Positions 2,247 to 46,605 of a stretch of DNA of 64,000 nt are shown piece by piece (positions within the stretch are counted from its first letter, which is position 1; each line of letters starts with the position of its first letter). Below the pieces are notes generated by a model. The model had not been told where the DNA came from. It did no database searches and was given only the letters and a program-made list of their open reading frames with translations. This stretch comes from an uncultured delta proteobacterium. Its GTDB lineage: Bacteria > Desulfobacterota > Binatia > Binatales > Binataceae. A program made the translations under genes and the position numbers. Where the stretch lies: positions 224,001 to 288,000 of the forward strand of contig CAVRVY010000001.1 of the NCBI GenBank assembly GCA_963724765.1. The letters run 5' to 3'.

Positions 2247-4016
2247 TCAGAGCTCGAGTGCGGCGGCAAGTGTCTCACGCTGGACTTCAAGTTCCCGAGG
2301 CAGATCGGCATTGATCCGATCGAAGAATTCTTCCTGTAAACGAAGCTCAGCGACCCACTCTTCAGGTTTTACCGCGAGCGCTCCGTCCAGCCGCGCCGCG
2401 GTAATATCCAACCCTGCAAGATCCAAGTCCAGCTTGTGAGGAATGAGACCAACAGCGGTTTGCGCGGCGCCGACACGGCCATGCACACGGTCGGCAATCC
2501 ACTTCAAAACCCTCATGTTCTCGCCGTAACCCGGCCAGAGAAATGAATTGTCTCGATCCTTTCGGAACCAGTTGACCATGAAGATCTTGGGTGGATGGGC
2601 AAGCTTGCTGTGCATCCCGAACCAGTGACTGATGTAATCGGCGACGTTGTAGCCACAGAAGGGAAGCATCGCCATCGGATCGCGGCGCACAACGCCGACC
2701 TTACCGCTCGCTGCTGCGGTAGTCTCCGAGCCCATCGTCGCGCCTAGGTATACGCCGTGGGCCCAATCAAATGACTCAAGCACCAGGGGAATCGTAGTGG
2801 CCCGACGGCCGCCGAAAATGATCGCCGAAATAGGCACTCCTTCAGGCGAGTCTGCATACGGCGTGTATGCGGGATTGTTCGTCATGGGGCAGGTGAAACG
2901 GCTGTTGGGGTGGGCAGCGGGGCGGCCCGACTCCCCTGTCCAAGGGTTTCCTCGCCAGTCAACGATACCCGAGGGAGGTTCGGTTTCGATGCCTTCCCAC
3001 CACACGTCATTGTCTGGAGTTAGCGCGACGTTGGTGAATATCGTGTCGCTCCGGATCATTTCCGTCGCGTTGAGATTAGAGCGCGCGCTGGTTCCGGGGG
3101 CGACCCCGAAATAACCGGCCTCAGGATTGATAGCCCACAGACGTCCATCTCGACCCACCCGCATCCAGGCGATATCGTCTCCGACGGTAAATATGCGCCA
3201 ACCTTTGAAAGGGGCCGGGGGCGTGAGCATCGCCAGGTTGGTCTTGCCGCACGCACTCGGAAAAGCTGCCGCTATATAGGTGACTTCTCCCTGCGGGCTC
3301 TCGAGCCCCAATATCAGCATGTGCTCGGCAAGCCATCCTTCTTTGCGACCTAGATAGCTGGCAATTCGCAGGCCGAAGCACTTCTTGCTCAACAGGGCGT
3401 TGCCGCCGTAGTTGCTTCCCACCGACCAAACCATGTTGTCCTGCGGAAAGTGACATATCAGCCGTCTGTTTGGATCACAGTCGAGAGTGCAATGCATGCC
3501 CCGCTGAAAATCGTCAGTTGTGCGTAGCAGATCACTCGCTACGCTTCCCATCCGGGTCATGATTCGAAGGCTCAGAACCACATAGAGACTATCGGTCAAC
3601 TGCACTCCGACTTTCGCCAAAGGAGACCCCACCGGTCCGAGCACGTAGGGCACCCCGTACATCGTCCGGCCTTTGTACGCACCTTCAAGCCAACTTTTGA
3701 GCTTTCGCCGGGTCTCGCCCGGATCCATCCAATTGTTTGTCGGCCCAGCTTCATCCCGAGTGGGCGTGCAAACGTAGGTCAGCTCCTCAGTGCGCGAGAC
3801 ATCGCTTGGATGCGAGCGATGAAGATAACAACCGGGGCGCCTGCGTTGGTCGAGTGGCATCAGCACGCCAGTAGCGACCGCCTGCGCCGTCAGACGACGT
3901 TTCTCTTCTTCGGAACCGTCGCACCAGATCATGTTTTTGGCCTGGGTCAACGACGCCATCTCATTCACCCAAGCGTCCAGAGGCGTAAGGCCGTTCCGAT
4001 CCTTTCGCCTCTTCAT
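2247..4016 (-). CDS. pckG: Phosphoenolpyruvate carboxykinase (GTP)
   Basis: 589 aa; motifs YGGNALL.KK, WLAEHM, AAFPSACGKTNLAM, VGDDIAW, HPNSRF, RRDPMAM. Confidence 0.97.
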   Translation of the reverse strand: MKRRKDRNGLTPLDAWVNEMASLTQAKNMIWCDGSEEEKRRLTAQAVATGVLMPLDQRRRPGCYLHRSHPSDVSRTEELTYVCTPTRDEAGPTNNWMDPGETRRKLKSWLEGAYKGRTMYGVPYVLGPVGSPLAKVGVQLTDSLYVVLSLRIMTRMGSVASDLLRTTDDFQRGMHCTLDCDPNRRLICHFPQDNMVWSVGSNYGGNALLSKKCFGLRIASYLGRKEGWLAEHMLILGLESPQGEVTYIAAAFPSACGKTNLAMLTPPAPFKGWRIFTVGDDIAWMRVGRDGRLWAINPEAGYFGVAPGTSARSNLNATEMIRSDTIFTNVALTPDNDVWWEGIETEPPSGIVDWRGNPWTGESGRPAAHPNSRFTCPMTNNPAYTPYADSPEGVPISAIIFGGRRATTIPLVLESFDWAHGVYLGATMGSETTAAASGKVGVVRRDPMAMLPFCGYNVADYISHWFGMHSKLAHPPKIFMVNWFRKDRDNSFLWPGYGENMRVLKWIADRVHGRVGAAQTAVGLIPHKLDLDLAGLDITAARLDGALAVKPEEWVAELRLQEEFFDRINADLPRELEVQRETLAAALEL

Positions 4017-6957: not shown

Positions 6958-7379
6958 ATGAGCACCATGGCTCCCAGCAATCTGGTGATGGCGGTCGATT
7001 GGCCCGCGGTGGGTCGCCAATCTCGATGCTCAGGGCTGGGTTGTAGTGTCCGGTCTACTAACAGACTCGGAATGCGACAGTATTGCCAATCTCTATACAT
7101 GTGGCGAAGGGTTCCGCAGTCATGTCGTGATGGCACGGCATGGCTTCGGACAGGGAGAATATCGTTATTTCGCCTATCCCCTTCCACGCTTGGTTCAAGG
7201 GTTGCGGACTGCCCTTTATCCGCACCTCGCTTCTGTGGCGAACCGCTGGTACGAGCGCATGGCCCTGGAGATACGCTTTCCTGCCACGCATGCCGCTTTC
7301 CTCGATCGCTCTCTTCGCCGATTCAAGGGAAGCTCGGCGAGCCGGCATGCGCGCCTGTAAACTCTGCCGGCCATCATGA
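6958..7379 (+). pseudogene. Truncated, frameshifted DUF2086-type 2OG-Fe(II) oxygenase joined to an Ada zinc-domain remnant
   Basis: FRSHVVMARHGFGQGEYRYFAYPLP..ANRW..FPATHAAFL, then an abrupt switch to EARRAGMRACKLCRP in another frame. Confidence 0.7.
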
Positions 7380-40086: not shown

Positions 40087-40218
40087 TCCCGCGCGTTCGG
40101 GGGAGCGAGGGAGTTCAGTAGATTGTTGCGGCTGGCGCAAGTCCTGTGGGTCGTGATCACTCCGTCCGGCCATCATCAGCGTCTCGTAATACTGAGAGTT
40201 CGAATCGGGAGTATATAC

Positions 40219-40749
40219 TTAACGCAATTTCTCGGCCTGACCGTTTTCCCTGACGCCCGCTTCGGATCGATTGGATTCTCTGGGAAAGCGCATGTAAACC
40301 CCGTGCTGTGTTATAGACCCAATGAAAGGGGCTTGATGTTTGAACACAAATCGGAAGATATCCGACAGGCGAGCCTTCAGAATGTCGGCCATTAGAGTCT
40401 TGTTCATGTTGCCGGAAGAAAAGGAGAATTGCTGAATTGCGTGCTTTTTGATCTGGTCAAGTTCCAGGGGCGTGTAGCGTTGCGCTTTATCCTTGGTCAA
40501 TATAATCCAGCATCGTTCTCCGACGAAAGGTAACCAAATTTCGTCATCAACACCTTCTGGGAATTTATCGCGAGGGAAATGGGCGAGATGCCTTTCGTAG
40601 TGAAGGCCCGCAGAATCTAGGACGTCATGAATGGGTCGGCAATCGCTGAAATTTTCGTCTAGATAATAGACGCTCGCATCACGCTGCCGCTGCCGCGCAC
40701 TGAGCTTCCCATCTGACTGCTTCTTCGATCTCTTTTGGCGTCCGCCCAT
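40219..40749 (-). CDS. VapC45-like PIN-domain toxin
   Basis: YYLDENF, DDEIWL..G...WIILTKD..RY..E; the stop codon lies inside the left IR. Confidence 0.85.
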   Translation of the reverse strand: MGGRQKRSKKQSDGKLSARQRQRDASVYYLDENFSDCRPIHDVLDSAGLHYERHLAHFPRDKFPEGVDDEIWLPFVGERCWIILTKDKAQRYTPLELDQIKKHAIQQFSFSSGNMNKTLMADILKARLSDIFRFVFKHQAPFIGSITQHGVYMRFPRESNRSEAGVRENGQAEKLR

Positions 40750-41389
40750 ACTCCTCTGCTAGGTCTTGGATGGATTCCCGCGCATTAAAGCGGGCGGCTA
40801 CCACGGCAGTAGCTATACCAGTGCGGTCGATAACCGAACGACCAAAAGCAATCGTCGGAGCTATGGAAATAATTTTCGGCTCATCTGTATTGATGTTGTA
40901 CACAAAAGGAAAAAACTTGCCGCCGGTCGCAGTCCATTTAATTCTCTGTAGATAAGTGTCTAAAACTTCTTTCATGATGATTTGACCGCCGTGCGTAAGA
41001 TTGATGATTACCTCATTCGTAGTAGCAATAAATAGGTTCATGCCATCCGTGCTAAGAGACGGCTCTAAGAGGGGATGTGGGGATGGTTGGATTTTGGCTA
41101 GCATTTCTAATGACTTACGCACCGCTAAAATCTGCATTTCGTGTGTTGTTCGAAGAGATTGCAGCACGTGACACTCCAGCAAATTTAAAAAAGAGAGTGT
41201 CGGCGGCTCATAGGTCGGTAGTGTTATCAGGGCGGTCGCGGGCGCGGACTTTTTTCCGATAGCCCAATACCGCAAGGTTTGATAGGGAACGCGGGCATAC
41301 CGCGCTGCGACCGCGAGACTATACGCCGGTGCGTCCAAGATTGGATGCTCCCCGTCGAACGGGCGCTTGAAAATTGACCTTGCCTCCAC
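40679..41389 (-). CDS. VapB45-like HTH plus DUF433 antitoxin
   Basis: AYS...AARY..VP..TLRYW, LSFLNLLE, I.P.IAFGR.VI..TGI.T....RF.A.ESI..LAEEY....IEEAVRW. Confidence 0.9.
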   Translation of the reverse strand: MEARSIFKRPFDGEHPILDAPAYSLAVAARYARVPYQTLRYWAIGKKSAPATALITLPTYEPPTLSFLNLLECHVLQSLRTTHEMQILAVRKSLEMLAKIQPSPHPLLEPSLSTDGMNLFIATTNEVIINLTHGGQIIMKEVLDTYLQRIKWTATGGKFFPFVYNINTDEPKIISIAPTIAFGRSVIDRTGIATAVVAARFNARESIQDLAEEYGRTPKEIEEAVRWEAQCAAAAA

Positions 41390-41408
41390 AGCCCTGATTG
41401 TATATCAT
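41380..41408 (+). promoter_or_regulatory. Candidate sigma-70 promoter for the tRNA-like gene
   Basis: TTGCCT-17 bp-TATCAT, 40 bp upstream of the tRNA. Confidence 0.4.
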
Positions 41409-41447
41409 TCTTCCCCTTCATTCAGTCAACCAAACCTTTATCGTTTT

Positions 41448-41535
41448 CGCGGCGTGCCGGAAATTGGCAGACGGACCGGTCTTGGATGTCGGCGGGCATA
41501 GTCTCGTGCGGGTTCGACTCCCGCCGCCGCGACCA
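41448..41535 (+). tRNA. Atypical class-II tRNA: Leu-like body with TGG (Pro) anticodon
   Basis: Folded by hand: 7-bp acceptor CGCGGCG/CGCCGCG + ACCA; D-arm CCG-GAAATTGGCAGA-CGG; anticodon arm CCGGT-CT TGG AT-GTCGG; 15-nt variable arm; T-arm GCGGG-TTCGACT-CCCGC. Confidence 0.85.
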
Positions 41536-41543
41536 TTTTTTAC

Positions 41544-41572
41544 TTGACACAAGTATCATGATAGAGTAGAGT
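41544..41572 (+). promoter_or_regulatory. Sigma-70 promoter of the transposase (likely leaderless mRNA)
   Basis: TTGACA-17 bp-TAGAGT ends 6 nt before ATG 41579; no Shine-Dalgarno; palindrome TATCATGATA in the spacer. Confidence 0.7.
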
Positions 41573-41578
41573 TACATC

Positions 41579-42610
41579 ATGGCAAAGGGGCAAAGAAAAG
41601 CGGGGTCTGATAAGTCGGCCATCGTGGCCGCGCTGCCAAAGGCCTGCGCTGATGAACCAGCGGCGGTCGAGTTCATCGAATCATTGCGGTGGGGCGTGAC
41701 GGGCCCGTGCTGCCTGCATTGCGGCGACACCGATGTTTACAAAATGACAGACCGCAAGACTGGCCAGCGCAACAGGCGCTTTCTGTGGAAGTGTAACGGC
41801 TGCCAGAAGCAATACACCGTTCGCGTTGGCACCGTGATGGAAGATAGCCGAATTCCGCTGCGCCATTGGGCATACGCGCTGTGGAAATCCTGTTCATCGA
41901 AGAAGGGCGTCAGCGCGTTGCAGATCAAGCGCGAGACCGGACTGACCTATAAATCGGCGCTGTTCATGATGCATCGCATCCGCTTCGGTATGGCCGAAGA
42001 TTGGACCGGGCAACCCAAGCTGAGCGGGACCGTGGAAGCCGATGAAACCTACGTCGGCGGCAAGCCGCGAAACAAGCATCCGCAAGGGCGACCGGGACCA
42101 CGAAAGGGTTGGCAGGATAAAAAGACTGCGGTGGCCGCATTAGTTGAGCGTGGTGGCAAGATCCGCTCATTCGTCACTGTGAACGTGACTGCCGCGAACG
42201 TGGGTAAGATTCTCCAAGAGAACGTAACAACGGATTCGCACCTGATGACTGACAGCTCTCCGATCTACCGCAGCGGAATCGGAAAGCCATTTGCGAGCCA
42301 CGGCATGACCGACCATTCCAAGGGCGAGTACGCGAAGCCGGATGGCACACACAGCAATACGGTTGAATCCGCCTTCTCATTGCTCAAGCGCGGCATCTAT
42401 GGAACTTTCCACAACGTCAGCCGCAAACATTTGCATCGTTACGTCGCCGAGTTTGATTTCCGCTGGAACGCGCGAAAAGTGGACGATGGCGAGCGATTGG
42501 CGCGCGCGATCCGAAGCGCGGAAGGTAAGCGGCTGCGGTACAAGGAACCATTGGCGACTTTGCCTCCGACCCCCGCACAAGGCAGACCATTTGAAACATT
42601 GCGCGGATAA
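41579..42610 (+). CDS. IS1595-family transposase
   Basis: Zn ribbon CLHC..CNGC, KKGVSALQI.R, GTVEADETYVGG, LMTD, HSNTVESAFSLLKR, YVAEFDFRWN. Confidence 0.96.
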   Translation: MAKGQRKAGSDKSAIVAALPKACADEPAAVEFIESLRWGVTGPCCLHCGDTDVYKMTDRKTGQRNRRFLWKCNGCQKQYTVRVGTVMEDSRIPLRHWAYALWKSCSSKKGVSALQIKRETGLTYKSALFMMHRIRFGMAEDWTGQPKLSGTVEADETYVGGKPRNKHPQGRPGPRKGWQDKKTAVAALVERGGKIRSFVTVNVTAANVGKILQENVTTDSHLMTDSSPIYRSGIGKPFASHGMTDHSKGEYAKPDGTHSNTVESAFSLLKRGIYGTFHNVSRKHLHRYVAEFDFRWNARKVDDGERLARAIRSAEGKRLRYKEPLATLPPTPAQGRPFETLRG

Positions 42611-42627
42611 GCTGTCGAGCCAACAGG

Positions 42628-45600
42628 ATGAGTAAGACAATCGACCAAGGCAAAGAAGAAATTGCGGCGCTCTGCCGATACTTCACTACTAACCGGCGGG
42701 AGTTTAACCCCGGAGCCAAAGAAGCCCACATCCGTCAAACATTGATCGACCCTTTCTTTGAAGCCCTAGGCTGGGATGTCCGTAACAAGACAATGGCTGC
42801 GCCTCAGTACCGGGAAGTCATTCCCGAGGACAGCCTAGACGTGGAAGGGCAACAAAAGGCCCCGGATTATACCTTCCGCGTCGGCACCTTGCCGAAGTTT
42901 TACGTCGAAGCCAAGAAGTGCGGTGTCAATATCGGTGCGGACTCGGGTCCGGCCTTCCAGCTTCGTCGATATGGATGGAGCGCCAAACTCGGGTTGTCCG
43001 TTCTCACCAACTTTGAGGAACTCGCCATTTACGATTGCACCGCCCGCCCGCGTCAGAGCGACAAAGCGAGCAATGCGAGAATCCAGTTCTTCCGCTACGA
43101 CGAATATCCCGACCGTTGGCGTGAATTGTGGGACCTGTTTTCCCGCGAAGCGGTCTGGTCCGGGGCGTTTGACCAGTACGTCGCGTCCAAGCGGAAACGT
43201 GGTACGTCCGAAGTAGATGCGGAGTTTTTGAAAGAAATGGAGAGCTGGCGGCTCGCGCTGGCCGGAAATATCGCCCTTCGAAACAAAAACCTGTCTTTGG
43301 ACGATCTGAACGCTGCAGTGCAACTCACGATTGACAGGGTGGTATTCCTTCGCATGGCGGAAGACCGAGGGCTAGAGCCTTACGAGCAACTTCTGAAGCT
43401 CTGCGAACGGCCCGGCATTTACCCGCGCTTCATTCGCGGTATATGCCGCAGGGCTGACCAAAAGTACAACTCTGGGCTGTTCCATTTCCAGAAGGAAAGC
43501 GGGGTATCCGAAGACCCCGACCGGATCACGCCGAAGCTGGCGACGGATGACAAGATTTTCAAGCCGATCCTTGAAAGCCTGTATTTCTCCCACGGCTCGC
43601 CCTATCACTTCGGTGTTCTACCCGTCGAAATCCTTGGAACCGTCTATGAACGGTTCTTGGGCAAGGTGATCCGGTTAACGGCAGGCCACCACGCAAGGAT
43701 TGAAGAAAAACCTGAAGTGCGCAAAGCCGGTGGCGTCTACTACACACCAGCTTACATTGTCGATTACATCGTCAAGCACACCGTCGCCGCGCAGATTGAA
43801 GGGCGAAGTCCCACACAACTGGCCGGGGAAAAGGACAGAGCGCCTTTCCGTGTCTTGGACATGGCTTGCGGAAGTGGATCGTTCCTGTTGAGTGCCTATC
43901 GGTGCCTTCTGGACTACTGCCTGAATTGGTACATCGAACACAAGCCGGACAACTTTAGGAAGGCCGTTTACAAGGACCCCCGCAACGGTCAATGGAGACT
44001 CAAGATAGAGGAAAAGAAACGGATTCTTACGACGCATATCTTCGGCGTGGACATCGACCTTCAGGCCGTGGAAGTATCTAAGCTGTCTCTGTTGCTGAAG
44101 GTGTTGGAAGGCGAAACGGATCAGAGTCTGTCTTTGAGCCAGCTTCCCTTTGGCGACCGCGCCCTGCCTAATCTGGCAGACAACATTAAGTGCGGCAATT
44201 CTCTAATCGGCCCGGATTATTTCACCGACAAGCTGTTTCTCGACCCCGAGGAAATGAAGCGGGTCAATCCGCTTGACTGGAAACAGCGCTTCCCCGATAC
44301 GATAAAGAGTGGAGGCTTTGATTGTATCATCGGCAACCCGCCGTACCTAAAAATTGAACATATTGTCGAAGGTGACCGGAAATATTTTTCGCTAGGCTTC
44401 GCCTCCTTCATGAAGAGATACGACACCTACGGGCTATTCGTCGAGCGTTCGCTTGTCCTTCTCAAGCCAAAGGGCCTGTTCGGCATGATTATTCCTTCGA
44501 CGATTTTGAACAACCTTAGCTTCAGCCAGCTTCGTAAGATGCTGGTCGAATTAACGTCCATCTCTTCGATAGTCAATTTGGGCGGAAAGGTCTTCCAAGG
44601 AGTAAACAACGATACCGTCATCTTGACTTTCGCAAAGGGAAAGGACCCCGTCGGCACAACGCAGATTCTCGACGTGCAGAAGTATGGTGGCGGGTTGGCA
44701 ACAGCGGCAGCTATCGGTACGAAGGATTTGTCTCGCGCGGCGGCGCCCCCGCAATATGTGTTTGAACTACGCATGTCGAAGGCGGCAGACTCCATCCTCG
44801 CTAAAATGCGCAGCGGCGGTCTGGCTCTTGGTGAAATCTGCTCATGCTTTCAAGGCTTCGTTACTGGGGGGAATGATGCCTACATTGTGGACTCAAAAAG
44901 TATCCGCGACGAAAACCTCGAAAAAGAGGTGTGCAAACCCGCTGTCTTTGGCGACCAAGTGTCCCGCTACGGCAGGCCGAGCCCCCAAGGATTCGTCATT
45001 TACCTGACCAGAGACAGCAATCTGGATGAATTTCCCAACATTAAGGCAAGGCTTGAACCTCACAAGGCCAACCTCAAAACGAAGCGAGAAGTGAAACTAG
45101 GAAGGCAGCCGTGGTACTCGCTGCACTGGCCTCGCGTTCAAGAAAATTTTGAACGTTCCCCGAAGATTTTGGTACAAGCAATAAGAAACTTAGCATTGAA
45201 AAGACGGATAATCGCCACGCTGGACTCTCGAGGTCTCTACGCCGATCACACGCTTAACGTGCTGTACACGGAGCATCAAGAATATGACATTATATTCGTG
45301 CTGGGTATTCTGAATTCCGCGCTTGTGAATTTCCTGTTCTCGAAGAAGTATATCGACATCAACATCAAAGGCGTGTATCTTACCGAGGCCCCCATTCCCA
45401 GAATTAACTTCTCTGCTCCTGCCGACAGAAAACGCCATGACCAAATGGTAACGCTGGTTAATTCGATACTCGGATTGCACAACGAAGTGGCCGAGACGAA
45501 GTCCGCCGCACAAAAGGCCATCCTTCAGCGCCAGATTGATTCGACGGACGCCGAGATCGACCGGCTCGTATATGATCTGTACGGCCTGACGGCTGAAGAG

Positions 45601-45657
45601 ATCGCGACAGTGGAAGGAGCAACCGCGAGCGTCAACCGAGTGAGCGTCCAAGAATGA
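42628..45657 (+). CDS. Type IIG (Eco57I-like) fused restriction endonuclease/N6-methyltransferase
   Basis: N-terminal PDY..VEAK nuclease; GVYYTP, LDMACGSGSFL, IFGVDID, IIGNPPY; TaqI-like C-terminus (LGILNS, EIDRLVYDLYGLT). Confidence 0.93.
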   Translation: MSKTIDQGKEEIAALCRYFTTNRREFNPGAKEAHIRQTLIDPFFEALGWDVRNKTMAAPQYREVIPEDSLDVEGQQKAPDYTFRVGTLPKFYVEAKKCGVNIGADSGPAFQLRRYGWSAKLGLSVLTNFEELAIYDCTARPRQSDKASNARIQFFRYDEYPDRWRELWDLFSREAVWSGAFDQYVASKRKRGTSEVDAEFLKEMESWRLALAGNIALRNKNLSLDDLNAAVQLTIDRVVFLRMAEDRGLEPYEQLLKLCERPGIYPRFIRGICRRADQKYNSGLFHFQKESGVSEDPDRITPKLATDDKIFKPILESLYFSHGSPYHFGVLPVEILGTVYERFLGKVIRLTAGHHARIEEKPEVRKAGGVYYTPAYIVDYIVKHTVAAQIEGRSPTQLAGEKDRAPFRVLDMACGSGSFLLSAYRCLLDYCLNWYIEHKPDNFRKAVYKDPRNGQWRLKIEEKKRILTTHIFGVDIDLQAVEVSKLSLLLKVLEGETDQSLSLSQLPFGDRALPNLADNIKCGNSLIGPDYFTDKLFLDPEEMKRVNPLDWKQRFPDTIKSGGFDCIIGNPPYLKIEHIVEGDRKYFSLGFASFMKRYDTYGLFVERSLVLLKPKGLFGMIIPSTILNNLSFSQLRKMLVELTSISSIVNLGGKVFQGVNNDTVILTFAKGKDPVGTTQILDVQKYGGGLATAAAIGTKDLSRAAAPPQYVFELRMSKAADSILAKMRSGGLALGEICSCFQGFVTGGNDAYIVDSKSIRDENLEKEVCKPAVFGDQVSRYGRPSPQGFVIYLTRDSNLDEFPNIKARLEPHKANLKTKREVKLGRQPWYSLHWPRVQENFERSPKILVQAIRNLALKRRIIATLDSRGLYADHTLNVLYTEHQEYDIIFVLGILNSALVNFLFSKKYIDINIKGVYLTEAPIPRINFSAPADRKRHDQMVTLVNSILGLHNEVAETKSAAQKAILQRQIDSTDAEIDRLVYDLYGLTAEEIATVEGATASVNRVSVQE

Positions 45658-45806
45658 CCAAGAAGCAGAAGACCGAGCGAAAGCCTCCCGGCCCCGCACC
45701 CGAAGTGCTGAAAATCGAGGGCGACTGGAAAGACGCCATGAAACAGCTGATTTCCAAGAAGCGCCCAGTCGGTGGTCGGCCCAAGATCGAAAAGAAACGC
45801 GGCTGA
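45654..45806 (+). CDS. Small basic protein (50 aa)
   Basis: Manual translation MTKKQKTERKPPGPAPEVLKIEGDWKDAMKQLISKKRPVGGRPKIEKKRG; ATGA overlap with the RM gene. Confidence 0.65.
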   Translation: MTKKQKTERKPPGPAPEVLKIEGDWKDAMKQLISKKRPVGGRPKIEKKRG

Positions 45807-45837
45807 ACGATCGTCCCCAACACAGGAGGCACGAACG

Positions 45838-46011
45838 ATGGCCAAGGTAGCCTCGTATCATACGAACTCGATGGAGTATCCGCCCAGCCACCGGAACGTT
45901 TACCACGATCACGACGATTGCCCATATGGGAAGCGCATTAAGCCACAACACCTCATTCGCAACTCGACCGGGGGCAAGCCGCGCTGCGATGAGTGCATCA
46001 AGCTGGGCTAA
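45838..46011 (+). CDS. Small putative metal-binding protein (57 aa)
   Basis: RBS AGGAGG; VYHDHDDCPYG...CDEC. Confidence 0.7.
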   Translation: MAKVASYHTNSMEYPPSHRNVYHDHDDCPYGKRIKPQHLIRNSTGGKPRCDECIKLG

Positions 46012-46373
46012 TTGCGTGCTCTAAATACGATTTCCCAATGCGGTCCGTTCGGCTCGTTGCCGTCCAGTATGGACCAGATGCGCCGCAGGAACAGGATCGG
46101 CAGCCCGTAGGCTAGGCAGACACCGACAGCGCGCCAGCCCGCTTCGGGCGTTCCGTAAAACCTGACGCTCGGCTCTGGGTAGGAGTGCCCCGGGCCGCCT
46201 TCGCAGGACTCGAACGTTTCGATCCCTTCGGCTTGGAGCCGTTCGACGGCTTTGCGGATGCCGGGATCTAGCCCTCGAAGGTCGCCGTTCAGCCATGCCG
46301 GTGGATGCTGATCTGTAGGCAGCGGCGACGCTTTCCAAAGCTTACCGCGTTTCGATTTCTTGTTTTTCGACAT
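46008..46373 (-). CDS. Hypothetical protein with D-x2-I...G-I-E-T-x2-S-C-E-G-x3-H motif
   Basis: LDPGIRKAVERLQAEGIETFESCEGGPGHSYPEP.V.F; lies just inside the right IR. Confidence 0.7.
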   Translation of the reverse strand: MSKNKKSKRGKLWKASPLPTDQHPPAWLNGDLRGLDPGIRKAVERLQAEGIETFESCEGGPGHSYPEPSVRFYGTPEAGWRAVGVCLAYGLPILFLRRIWSILDGNEPNGPHWEIVFRARN

Positions 46374-46454
46374 CGGAGATTCAATTAGGCCGACTTAACG
46401 ATGTATTAGTGAGACTTTCGGGGATTGCGTTAAGTACATACTCCCGGTTAGAAT

Positions 46455-46605
46455 TCATCCCGCTCCGCCACGCAGTCCCAGATTTGATGATTCTCCGGGC
46501 ATAACCGCAAAAAGCGCGCGTGTGGGGGGGGCGATGCGCCCGCCCACCGACACCGGAGAGAGCTCAGATGTCGAATTATGCCGCGTCGCTTCGATTTTCT
46601 CTCTG
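46455..46605 (+). repeat. tRNA 3'-end-like terminal module; diverged inverted copy at 60410-60567
   Basis: Shared blocks CGCTCCGCCA, AGTCCC.GATTT, TCTCCGG, ACCGGAGA, GCCGCG, TTTCTCT in the same order. Confidence 0.6.

Follow-up and report, generated by a model that had tools for sequence, protein, structure and literature searches.

The window, a 64,000-nucleotide (nt) stretch of contig CAVRVY010000001.1 (assembly GCA_963724765.1, positions 224,001 to 288,000) from an uncultured bacterium of the Binataceae, contains a transfer RNA (tRNA) gene, confirmed as real and beyond chance, in which a long-armed, class-II body of the leucine type bears the proline anticodon UGG. The gene has the fold of a tRNA, is conserved among relatives with its UGG anticodon fixed, and lies inside the terminal inverted repeats of a transposon of the IS1595 family. 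We consider it fairly probable that the gene is functional and has long been retained by the transposon as cargo, together with defence genes, and that its product would decode CCN codons while charged with leucine, with proline, or with both. Other loci and genomes are referred to by L and G numbers, G000 being the source genome.

ARAGORN called one tRNA in the window, exactly at this place, with a length of 88 nt and the anticodon tgg (Table 1). In a local search of 401 bases the RF00005 model, whose gathering score is 29, scored 41.6 bits (E 1.3e-7); an Rfam scan of the whole window with fast filters did not list the tRNA. The acceptor stem (CGCGGCG/CGCCGCG) is Watson-Crick paired at all seven positions, including C1:G72 and C3:G70. 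U8 precedes the D arm, which has a 3-bp stem (C10-G25, C11-G24, G12-C23), G13.A22, A14, A15, G18G19 and A20a; the anticodon stem (CCGGU/GUCGG, with G30.U40 and U31.G39) closes a 7-nt loop, CUUGGAU, with U33, UGG and A37. A variable region of 15 nt and U48 precede the T arm (GCGGG-UUCGACU-CCCGC, a 5-bp stem, with U54, U55, C56 and A58 in the loop), which is followed by A73 and the encoded CCA, and the acceptor/T geometry is the canonical 7/5. Every feature for which the initial annotation had described a leucine-type body with a proline anticodon was thus present, including A37 and the two G-U pairs. A promoter-like site ends 40 nt upstream, and similar -35/-10-like words stand upstream of the tRNA in about half of 10 relatives; these consensus matches give a hint that the tRNA may have a promoter of its own. 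The run of six Ts directly after the CCA end was not called by the terminator scan, and no RNA sequencing runs were listed as containing the tRNA.

We searched 165 genomes of the bacterial family with the tRNA (by BLAST) and with the adjacent transposase. The tallies include seven genomes flagged as unpublished (G017, G018, G102, G157, G162, G163 and G164), which contributed locus L012 and, in the transposase tree described below, L290 and L295, and which hold no tRNA(UGG) carrier. BLAST with the tRNA returned four full-length matches at 74–79% identity, all with the long arm, UGG, C1:G72 and A73, and with stems that differ by compensatory changes. The transposase search returned 20 loci with a relative of at least about 60% identity, or a fragment of one; a class-II tRNA was found at 11 of them (10 by ARAGORN, and L279 of G085 by alignment), and these diverged homologues all have UGG. 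In the L279 tRNA (about 2500–2610, minus strand) the variable arm measures some 30 nt, double what is usual, and ARAGORN gives no call there. Plasmid and phage collections gave no match.

Covariation was assessed over the 39 distinct UGG members listed, which came also from the pattern scans described below: 98.1% of 896 cells were paired, 16 of 23 pairs had changed on both sides, and all seven acceptor pairs covaried. None of 500 shuffles did as well, and sliding the pairing partner lowered the paired fraction to 39–48%. A14, A15, G18, G19 and U48 were invariant in all 39; the search pattern did not fix A14, A15 or U48, it fixed A20a in the relatives, and it left the acceptor, anticodon and variable stems free. 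Because homologues with compensatory stem changes exist, the tRNA is more than a chance resemblance. The fixed anticodon, the covarying stems, the kept A73 and the 7/5 geometry argue, further, for a charged and decoding tRNA rather than a mere structure.

The initial annotation had allowed for a base-call error at the anticodon or for a decaying tRNA-Leu pseudogene, and an origin of this kind, by decay or by an assembly or base-call artefact, is now effectively refuted. It would fit with the single copy per genome, with the G.U pairs beside the loop, and with the fact that the element can lack the tRNA; against it, UGG stands in 11 of 11 relatives at 74–79% identity or less, with compensatory changes, and in 38 of at least 120 metagenome loci, and the contigs of four DNA runs, one of which is possibly the source sample, list no other base for the anticodon or for the rest of the gene. 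In runs X1, X3 and X7 the summed contig depth over the bin 41299–41555 was 49–215, compared with about 0–15 in the neighbouring bins, which means that many other contigs of these soil and peat runs match the tRNA at 90% identity or more; presumably these are related tRNAs of other organisms.

That the tRNA is transposon-borne, as had been proposed, held on closer analysis. The element (40196–46456, 6.26 kb) is of the IS1595 family and has the tRNA 1.2 kb inside its 33-nt inverted repeats and next to its transposase, whose relatives in the bacterial family have 60–87% identity. In L140 and L138 two inverted copies of this repeat, at 90–100% identity, flank the tRNA and the transposase; in L139 one such arm is present. 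The element has 53.6% G+C, compared with 62% for the genome, in which it occurs once. Across five elements (that of the window and L138–L141) only the tRNA, the transposase and an open reading frame (ORF) of 50 amino acids (aa) are common to all; the other cargo differs and is mostly of the restriction type, being a methylase-Mrr fusion with HNH in L138/L140, a SmaI-like nuclease in L139, a 979-aa N6 methylase in L204, and nothing assignable in L141. In L141 and L006 the transposase is inverted relative to the tRNA, with both still in the element. No direct repeat (target duplication) was seen at the ends of the element. A search for the empty site in 17 genomes of the genus matched only a desaturase gene, at about 70% identity, the flank beside the element not being conserved. 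A 17-nt inverted repeat (41510–41526 / 42694–42710) had raised the possibility that the insertion-sequence ends lie in the T arm of the tRNA; this was ruled out, as similarity among the relatives extends over the entire tRNA and it is the 33-nt repeats that form the conserved ends. In the record of Terracidiphilus (L119) a TonB-dependent receptor gene is split by an insert of about 3.2 kb that contains a UGC tRNA of the wider family (below) and a transposase; a look for terminal repeats in L119 and in the simpler elements L076, L285, L192 and L226 gave nothing convincing.

We examined which amino acid the tRNA might accept by comparing leucine and proline identity elements position by position, and by pairwise similarity. 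In global alignment with the 58 other ARAGORN calls of the genome, tRNA-Leu(UAA) and tRNA-Pro(GGG) tied at the top, and all five tRNA-Leu of the genome were within the seven tRNAs most similar to that of the window. Its D arm, variable arm and T arm are leucine-like; its acceptor stem differs by one pair from the stems of the genome's tRNA-Pro, to which that of the relative L005 is identical. The three tRNA-Pro of the genome are 75–78 nt long, and the window tRNA is without the short (4–5 nt) class-I variable loop. It is not a tRNA-Leu by decoding, because its anticodon is UGG and not one of leucine (NAG or YAA, with A35).

The leucyl-tRNA synthetase (LeuRS) of E. coli requires A73, A15:U48, G18G19, A20a and contacts of the D and T loops, and requires neither the anticodon nor the long arm (PMC9976931). 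The window tRNA carries this set in full, T-loop partners included. Of the bacterial proline determinants (A73, G72, G15:C48, U17a, G49, G35, G36 and G37; PMC9976931) it has A73, G72, G49, G35 and G36 and is without G15:C48 and G37, having A15:U48 and A37. The initial annotation had credited the tRNA with the marks of both enzymes; those for LeuRS stand, and those for prolyl-tRNA synthetase (ProRS) stand only in part (G72, A73, G35, G36). C1:G72, which had been counted among them, is no proline mark by itself. It is compatible with a leucine tRNA, because 81 of the 106 hits of a scan that required C1 (below) were ordinary tRNA-Leu of other phyla. The genome encodes one LeuRS (955 bits, at G000:C1:370457-372889) and one ProRS, of family I (E-type, 571 bits, at G000:C3:273303-274730), with no family II hit over the cut-off; no synthetase gene was found inside the transposon, nor an extra LeuRS or ProRS paralogue in the genome.

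These findings bear on whether the tRNA could instead be an odd-shaped tRNA-Pro, charged only by ProRS through G35, G36, A73 and G72 and acting as a spare proline decoder, which we hold to be rather unlikely. It might bring a benefit by escaping a nuclease or toxin whose target is the body of normal tRNA-Pro, or by raising CCA decoding for an element of lower G+C. Phages carry tRNAs that, as cargo of a mobile genetic element, resist anticodon nucleases. CCA is a minor codon of the genome, at 5.6 per 1000, and the element uses it somewhat more often, at 8.2 per 1000; the acceptor stem is like that of the host tRNA-Pro, with C1:G72. C1:G72 occurs in 10 of the 39 UGG members listed; five of these 10 have G37, compared with five of the 29 others, in tallies where kin are not independent. 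Bacterial E-type ProRS, the type of the host, recognises G72 and A73 (PMC11229370). Against exclusive charging by ProRS, the window copy is without G15:C48 and G37, both bacterial proline determinants (PMC9976931); most UGG members elsewhere have G1:C72; the anticodon cannot switch off an intact LeuRS set; and the same body bears stop, alanine, aspartate and glutamate anticodons, for which cognate charging is implausible. Also against it, the canonical tRNA-Pro(UGG) is kept in nine of 10 carriers (the tenth genome is 86% complete), so the tRNA is accessory, and replacement of the housekeeping tRNA-Pro(UGG) was not seen in these nine.

The range of anticodons borne by the same body was examined with two pattern scans. 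The scan of genome contigs (leucine-type D arm, T arm of the window tRNA, C at position 1, any anticodon) gave 106 stretches: 81 ordinary tRNA-Leu with C1:G72, from Phycisphaerae, Coriobacteriia, Verrucomicrobia and some Alphaproteobacteria; 17 with non-leucine anticodons (UGG 7, UGC 3, UGA 2, and AGG, GUC, GCC, ACC and GGA one each); and eight without an ARAGORN call. The scan of metagenomes (same arms, position 35 not A, position 1 free) gave at least 120 loci, with UGG 38, CGC 17, GUC 10, UUA 8, CUC 4, UGC 4 and CUA 3, other anticodons at one or two each, and 10 loci without an ARAGORN call; a few are ordinary tRNAs in arrays. The two scans, pooled and de-duplicated, comprise at least 114 distinct sequences, and the following counts refer to the 114 members listed. 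At least 23 different non-leucine anticodons are represented, UGG being the commonest; nine members have ochre and three amber anticodons. A73, seven paired acceptor positions and the 7/5 acceptor-T geometry are each found in 102, G1:C72 in 79, C1:G72 in 18 (12 of them from the C1-biased scan), A37 in 94, G37 in 16, and an encoded CCA in 19; position 3:70 is G:U in one and U:G in two. The members with alanine, aspartate and glutamate anticodons are without the G3.U70 wobble pair or G73. As these and the ochre and amber members lack marks that match their anticodons, only the leucine body can explain their charging. Leucine would accordingly be the family default, both because the LeuRS set is complete in the core of the molecule and LeuRS ignores the anticodon, and because stop, alanine, aspartate and glutamate anticodons sit on the same body without matching identity marks.

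A relative of the window transposase was present on the same contig at 32 of the at least 120 metagenome loci. Among the loci listed, linkage was found for 26 of 42 proline anticodons (UGG 23 of 38, AGG 2 of 2, GGG 1 of 2), for none of 17 CGC loci and for none of 10 GUC loci. In a tree of 45 transposases the copies cluster according to which anticodon their linked tRNA bears: almost all of those linked to UGG fall in one clade with 100/99 support, the AGG/GGG-linked and the UUA/CUA-linked copies are neighbouring groups, and the flanks of the outgroup are without such a tRNA. The initial annotation had suggested looking for homologues beside IS1595 transposases with a varying anticodon on a conserved body; such homologues exist, and the anticodon varies in the wider family and not in the transposase clade of the window. 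Most commonly the tRNA lies downstream of the transposase and convergent with it, at 20–130 nt; the layout of the window (upstream, same strand, 44 nt) occurs only in its sub-clade.

The neighbours of the family elsewhere include genes for ApeA-HEPN, HEPN, PIN, MazF/PemK, Uma2 and other nucleases, a primase-polymerase, a prophage terminase and IS1-like proteins. Such a setting could also suit a tRNA-shaped RNA that is not used in translation, serving as decoy, sensor or antidote for a tRNA-targeting nuclease, or as a processing, termination or insulation signal for transposase expression; we judge this quite improbable. It draws on the proximity of PIN (window, L100), ApeA-HEPN (L053), HEPN (L046), MazF/PemK (L256), Uma2, other nuclease and restriction-modification genes, on the prevalence of the convergent layout, on C33 in some members (below), and on the suggestion that allo-tRNAs near toxin-antitoxin genes are partly non-translational (PMC5389517). 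However, no partner gene is conserved with the tRNA except the transposase and the 50-aa ORF, and the position relative to the transposase (upstream on the same strand or downstream on the opposite strand, at 5 to 2000 nt) is too variable for a signal acting in cis. A73 and the 7/5 geometry, so widely kept, are relevant to charging and EF-Tu and not to a decoy, and the anticodon triplet stays fixed while its stem covaries. The narrower idea of the initial annotation, a decoy or regulator for the adjacent PIN toxin, is not supported: the PIN_10/DUF433 pair is cargo of the window element only, its place being taken by HNH or unassigned ORFs in the four related elements that were examined.

We favour, then, a tRNA that is charged and that decodes. 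It would be transcribed from its own promoter-like site, matured into an L-shaped tRNA of normal 7/5 geometry that ends in A73-CCA, and aminoacylated, and it would read CCN (proline) codons on the ribosome beside the host tRNA-Pro(UGG). Charging with leucine, as the default of the family, would make it a low-level Pro-to-Leu missense suppressor. In the sub-clade of the window the acceptor end appears to have been remodelled to the host tRNA-Pro type (C1:G72, with G37 in half of the members), which together with G35 and G36 should let ProRS compete with LeuRS; the window tRNA is thus probably one of dual identity (Leu/Pro), and the ratio of leucine to proline charging would set the level of mistranslation. 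We infer for this clade a leucine-accepting ancestor whose acceptor end and position 37 would have moved toward the proline type of the host. What the element might gain is a guess: a controlled proteome ambiguity, or toxicity, linked to stress or invasion and tied to the defence cargo. The recurrence of restriction and abortive-infection cargo leads us to conjecture a link to genetic conflict. That the tRNA recodes its own transposase at stop codons was ruled out, as no in-frame stop was found in the transposases beside an ochre (L168) and an amber (L229) tRNA over query residues 25–321 and 25–322, respectively, the ORF of L229 ending there at its own stop codon.

Several observations weigh against this picture. 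When the sequence is folded by itself, its minimum-energy structure has non-canonical D and anticodon arms, and shuffled sequences fold as well as it does (z = -0.10); the window copy has the two G.U pairs beside its anticodon loop. Eighteen of the 114 listed members have C33 (loops YCUGGRR) in place of the near-universal U33, which the other 96 have; examples are L003, L148, L169, L183, L189, L197, L204 and L279. No tRNA was found within the 1.5-kb flanks at nine of the 20 close transposase loci, nor at the expected place at L274 (G074), the closest transposase relative with 87% identity; from these it follows that the element can exist without the tRNA. Proline codons are not avoided in the transposon genes, being 5.4% in both element and genome. 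Finally, the sampling is biased, in that the search pattern set the D and T arms in part and ARAGORN requires a cloverleaf.

Table 1. Coordinates of the tRNA gene, its candidate signals, and the ends and genes of the transposon (numbering of the window)
Feature	Position	Strand	Evidence or remark
Left terminal inverted repeat, 33 nt	40196–40228		88% complementary to 46424–46456
PIN_10 domain protein, toxin-like, variable cargo	40219–40749	-	PF18478, E 4.4e-9; no counterpart in related elements
DUF433 + HTH protein, antitoxin-like, variable cargo	40679–41389	-	PF04255, E 7.2e-7; PF21321, E 9.6e-4
Promoter-like site TTGCCT-17-TATCAT, upstream of tRNA	41380–41408	+	Consensus scan, 9/12 matches
Class-II tRNA, leucine-type body, C1:G72, A73, encoded CCA, A37	41448–41535	+	ARAGORN, Rfam, homologues, covariation
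Anticodon UGG of the class-II tRNA	41483–41485	+	
Six-T run directly after the CCA end	41536–41541	+	Read from the sequence
Transposase promoter-like site TTGACA-17-TAGAGT	41544–41572	+	10/12 matches
IS1595-family transposase, 343 aa	41579–42610	+	DDE_Tnp_IS1595, E 1.4e-37; Zn_ribbon_IS1595, E 1e-8
Type IIG restriction-modification enzyme, 1009 aa, cargo	42628–45657	+	Pfam Eco57I, N6_Mtase, HSDR_N, MmeI_Mtase, TaqI_C
Basic ORF, 50 aa, near right end	45654–45806	+	52–70% aa identity in L138, L139, L140, L141
ORF, 121 aa	46008–46373	-	50% identity over 94 aa to an ORF of L138; no Pfam match of note
Right terminal inverted repeat, 33 nt	46424–46456		Pairs with the left repeat; recurs in relatives

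Some further features of the elements and of the family were recorded. The conserved 50-aa ORF is very basic, contains a PPGPAP stretch and matches no Pfam family. The metagenome copy closest to the element of G011 (L204, 5091–8423) has the setting of a defence island, with ThsB-TIR, SLATT and STAND-NTPase genes next to it. At L217 a 74-nt sequence that resembles a class-I tRNA and whose anticodon is unclear (7153–7226, plus strand) lies 11 nt upstream of a class-II UGG tRNA, so some elements may carry two tRNAs. Among metagenome loci the CGC (alanine) type was recorded at L143, L167, L176, L180, L186, L191, L205, L211 and others, the CUC (glutamate) type at L142, L153, L184 and L237, and the GUC (aspartate) type at L144, L159, L215, L246 and others; a single contig can hold both the CGC and the CUC type (L153, L227), and Ser/Thr kinases or Uma2 nucleases are frequent neighbours. 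Suppressor-type loci have UUA (ochre) at L158, L160, L161, L168, L187, L200, L206 and L251, and CUA (amber) at L220, L229 and L256. At L256 a MazF/PemK toxin gene is 48 nt away; L168 and L229 adjoin IS1595 transposases that are sisters in the tree. In the record of Microbacterium timonense (L053, 4446–4531) a leucine-bodied tRNA with the aspartate anticodon GUC, C1:G72, A73 and CCA lies 75 nt upstream of a gene with ApeA_NTD1 and HEPN_Apea domains. ARAGORN also called three unusual tRNAs in the source genome itself: a 91-nt tRNA-Cys(GCA) with a long variable arm, possibly selC*-like (G000:C4, 64275–64365, minus strand); a 95-nt Ser-like tRNA with an oversized anticodon loop (G000:C1, 1040721–1040815, minus strand); and, beside the latter, a 74-nt call 'SeC(tca)' (1040840–1040913, minus strand), a normal tRNA-Sec being present in the genome as well.

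Among known systems the closest in ecology and context are the allo-tRNAs, bacterial class-II tRNAs of soil and sediment organisms with 35 anticodons, stop anticodons included, mismatched to the body (Mukai et al. 2017, PMC5389517), which likewise often lie beside toxin-antitoxin and transposon-related genes, and which, in E. coli, put the amino acid of the body at codons that do not call for it and cause toxicity on induction. They differ in having 8/4 or 9/3 geometry, a tRNASec-like D arm, and serine (G73) or alanine (G3:U70) identity (PMC5389517), whereas the window tRNA has 7/5 geometry, a 3-bp leucine-type D stem, A73 and C3:G70, and a specific link to IS1595 transposases that is stable across their phylogeny. 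Closest in mechanism are the nev-tRNAs of nematodes, class-II tRNAs derived from tRNA-Leu with glycine (CCC) or isoleucine (UAU) anticodons, of which only leucine charging was obtained in vitro, GGG being decoded in vitro as leucine (Hamashima et al. 2012, PMC3333845); in contrast to the present tRNA they are eukaryotic nuclear genes not borne by a mobile element, with other anticodons and without a proline-type acceptor end (PMC3333845). The tRNAProX/ProRSx systems of Streptomyces and relatives are natural dual-identity tRNAs that involve proline and encode mistranslation; they are the mirror case, with a class-I tRNA-Pro body, alanine, asparagine or threonine anticodons, A34, and a dedicated ProRS paralogue (PMC11415595), and that 2024 review lists no leucine-bodied, proline-reading tRNA. 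The window tRNA, unlike these, has a leucine-type body and a proline anticodon in a genome with a single ProRS. An engineered yeast tRNA-Ser(UGG), also class II and charged by a synthetase that ignores the anticodon, reportedly inserts serine at proline codons with a toxicity that is tuned by weakening mutations; it shares UGG on an anticodon-blind class-II body and differs in being man-made, of serine identity and eukaryotic. The element itself resembles IS1595-family transposons in its Zn-ribbon and DDE_Tnp_IS1595 transposase and in its terminal inverted repeats with passenger genes between them, and the IS1595 family includes long passenger-carrying members. A search of full-text literature found no description of this tRNA family or of a tRNA as an IS1595 passenger, although supplements, notably that of PMC5389517, may hold related sequences; the large family of mismatched leucine-bodied tRNAs is apparently undescribed.

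Natural mismatch of body and anticodon is rare, and allo-tRNAs, nev-tRNAs and tRNAProX each changed views on how frozen the genetic code is. The present case is bacterial and of canonical geometry, its anticodon is fixed, and it is physically linked to a single lineage of transposases; it so offers a clean, clonable system of tRNA, LeuRS, ProRS and reporter, which could test whether mobile elements deliberately spread codon ambiguity and could show acceptor-end remodelling (G1:C72 to C1:G72, A37 to G37) during identity drift. The ochre and amber members would be ready-made natural leucine suppressors. Should the tRNA be only a spare tRNA-Pro, it would still be the first class-II-shaped proline tRNA traced in the literature searched. 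We propose, tentatively and as a possibility that falls short of likely, that in soil bacteria a dedicated tRNA which accepts leucine and decodes proline codons is spread by IS1595 transposons, within a large natural family of leucine-bodied missense, ochre and amber suppressors with which mobile and defence elements would alter how the code is read in hosts or invaders. If leucine is indeed inserted, a cell that acquires such an element would gain a heritable and mobile Pro-to-Leu ambiguity, and may mistranslate its own genes.

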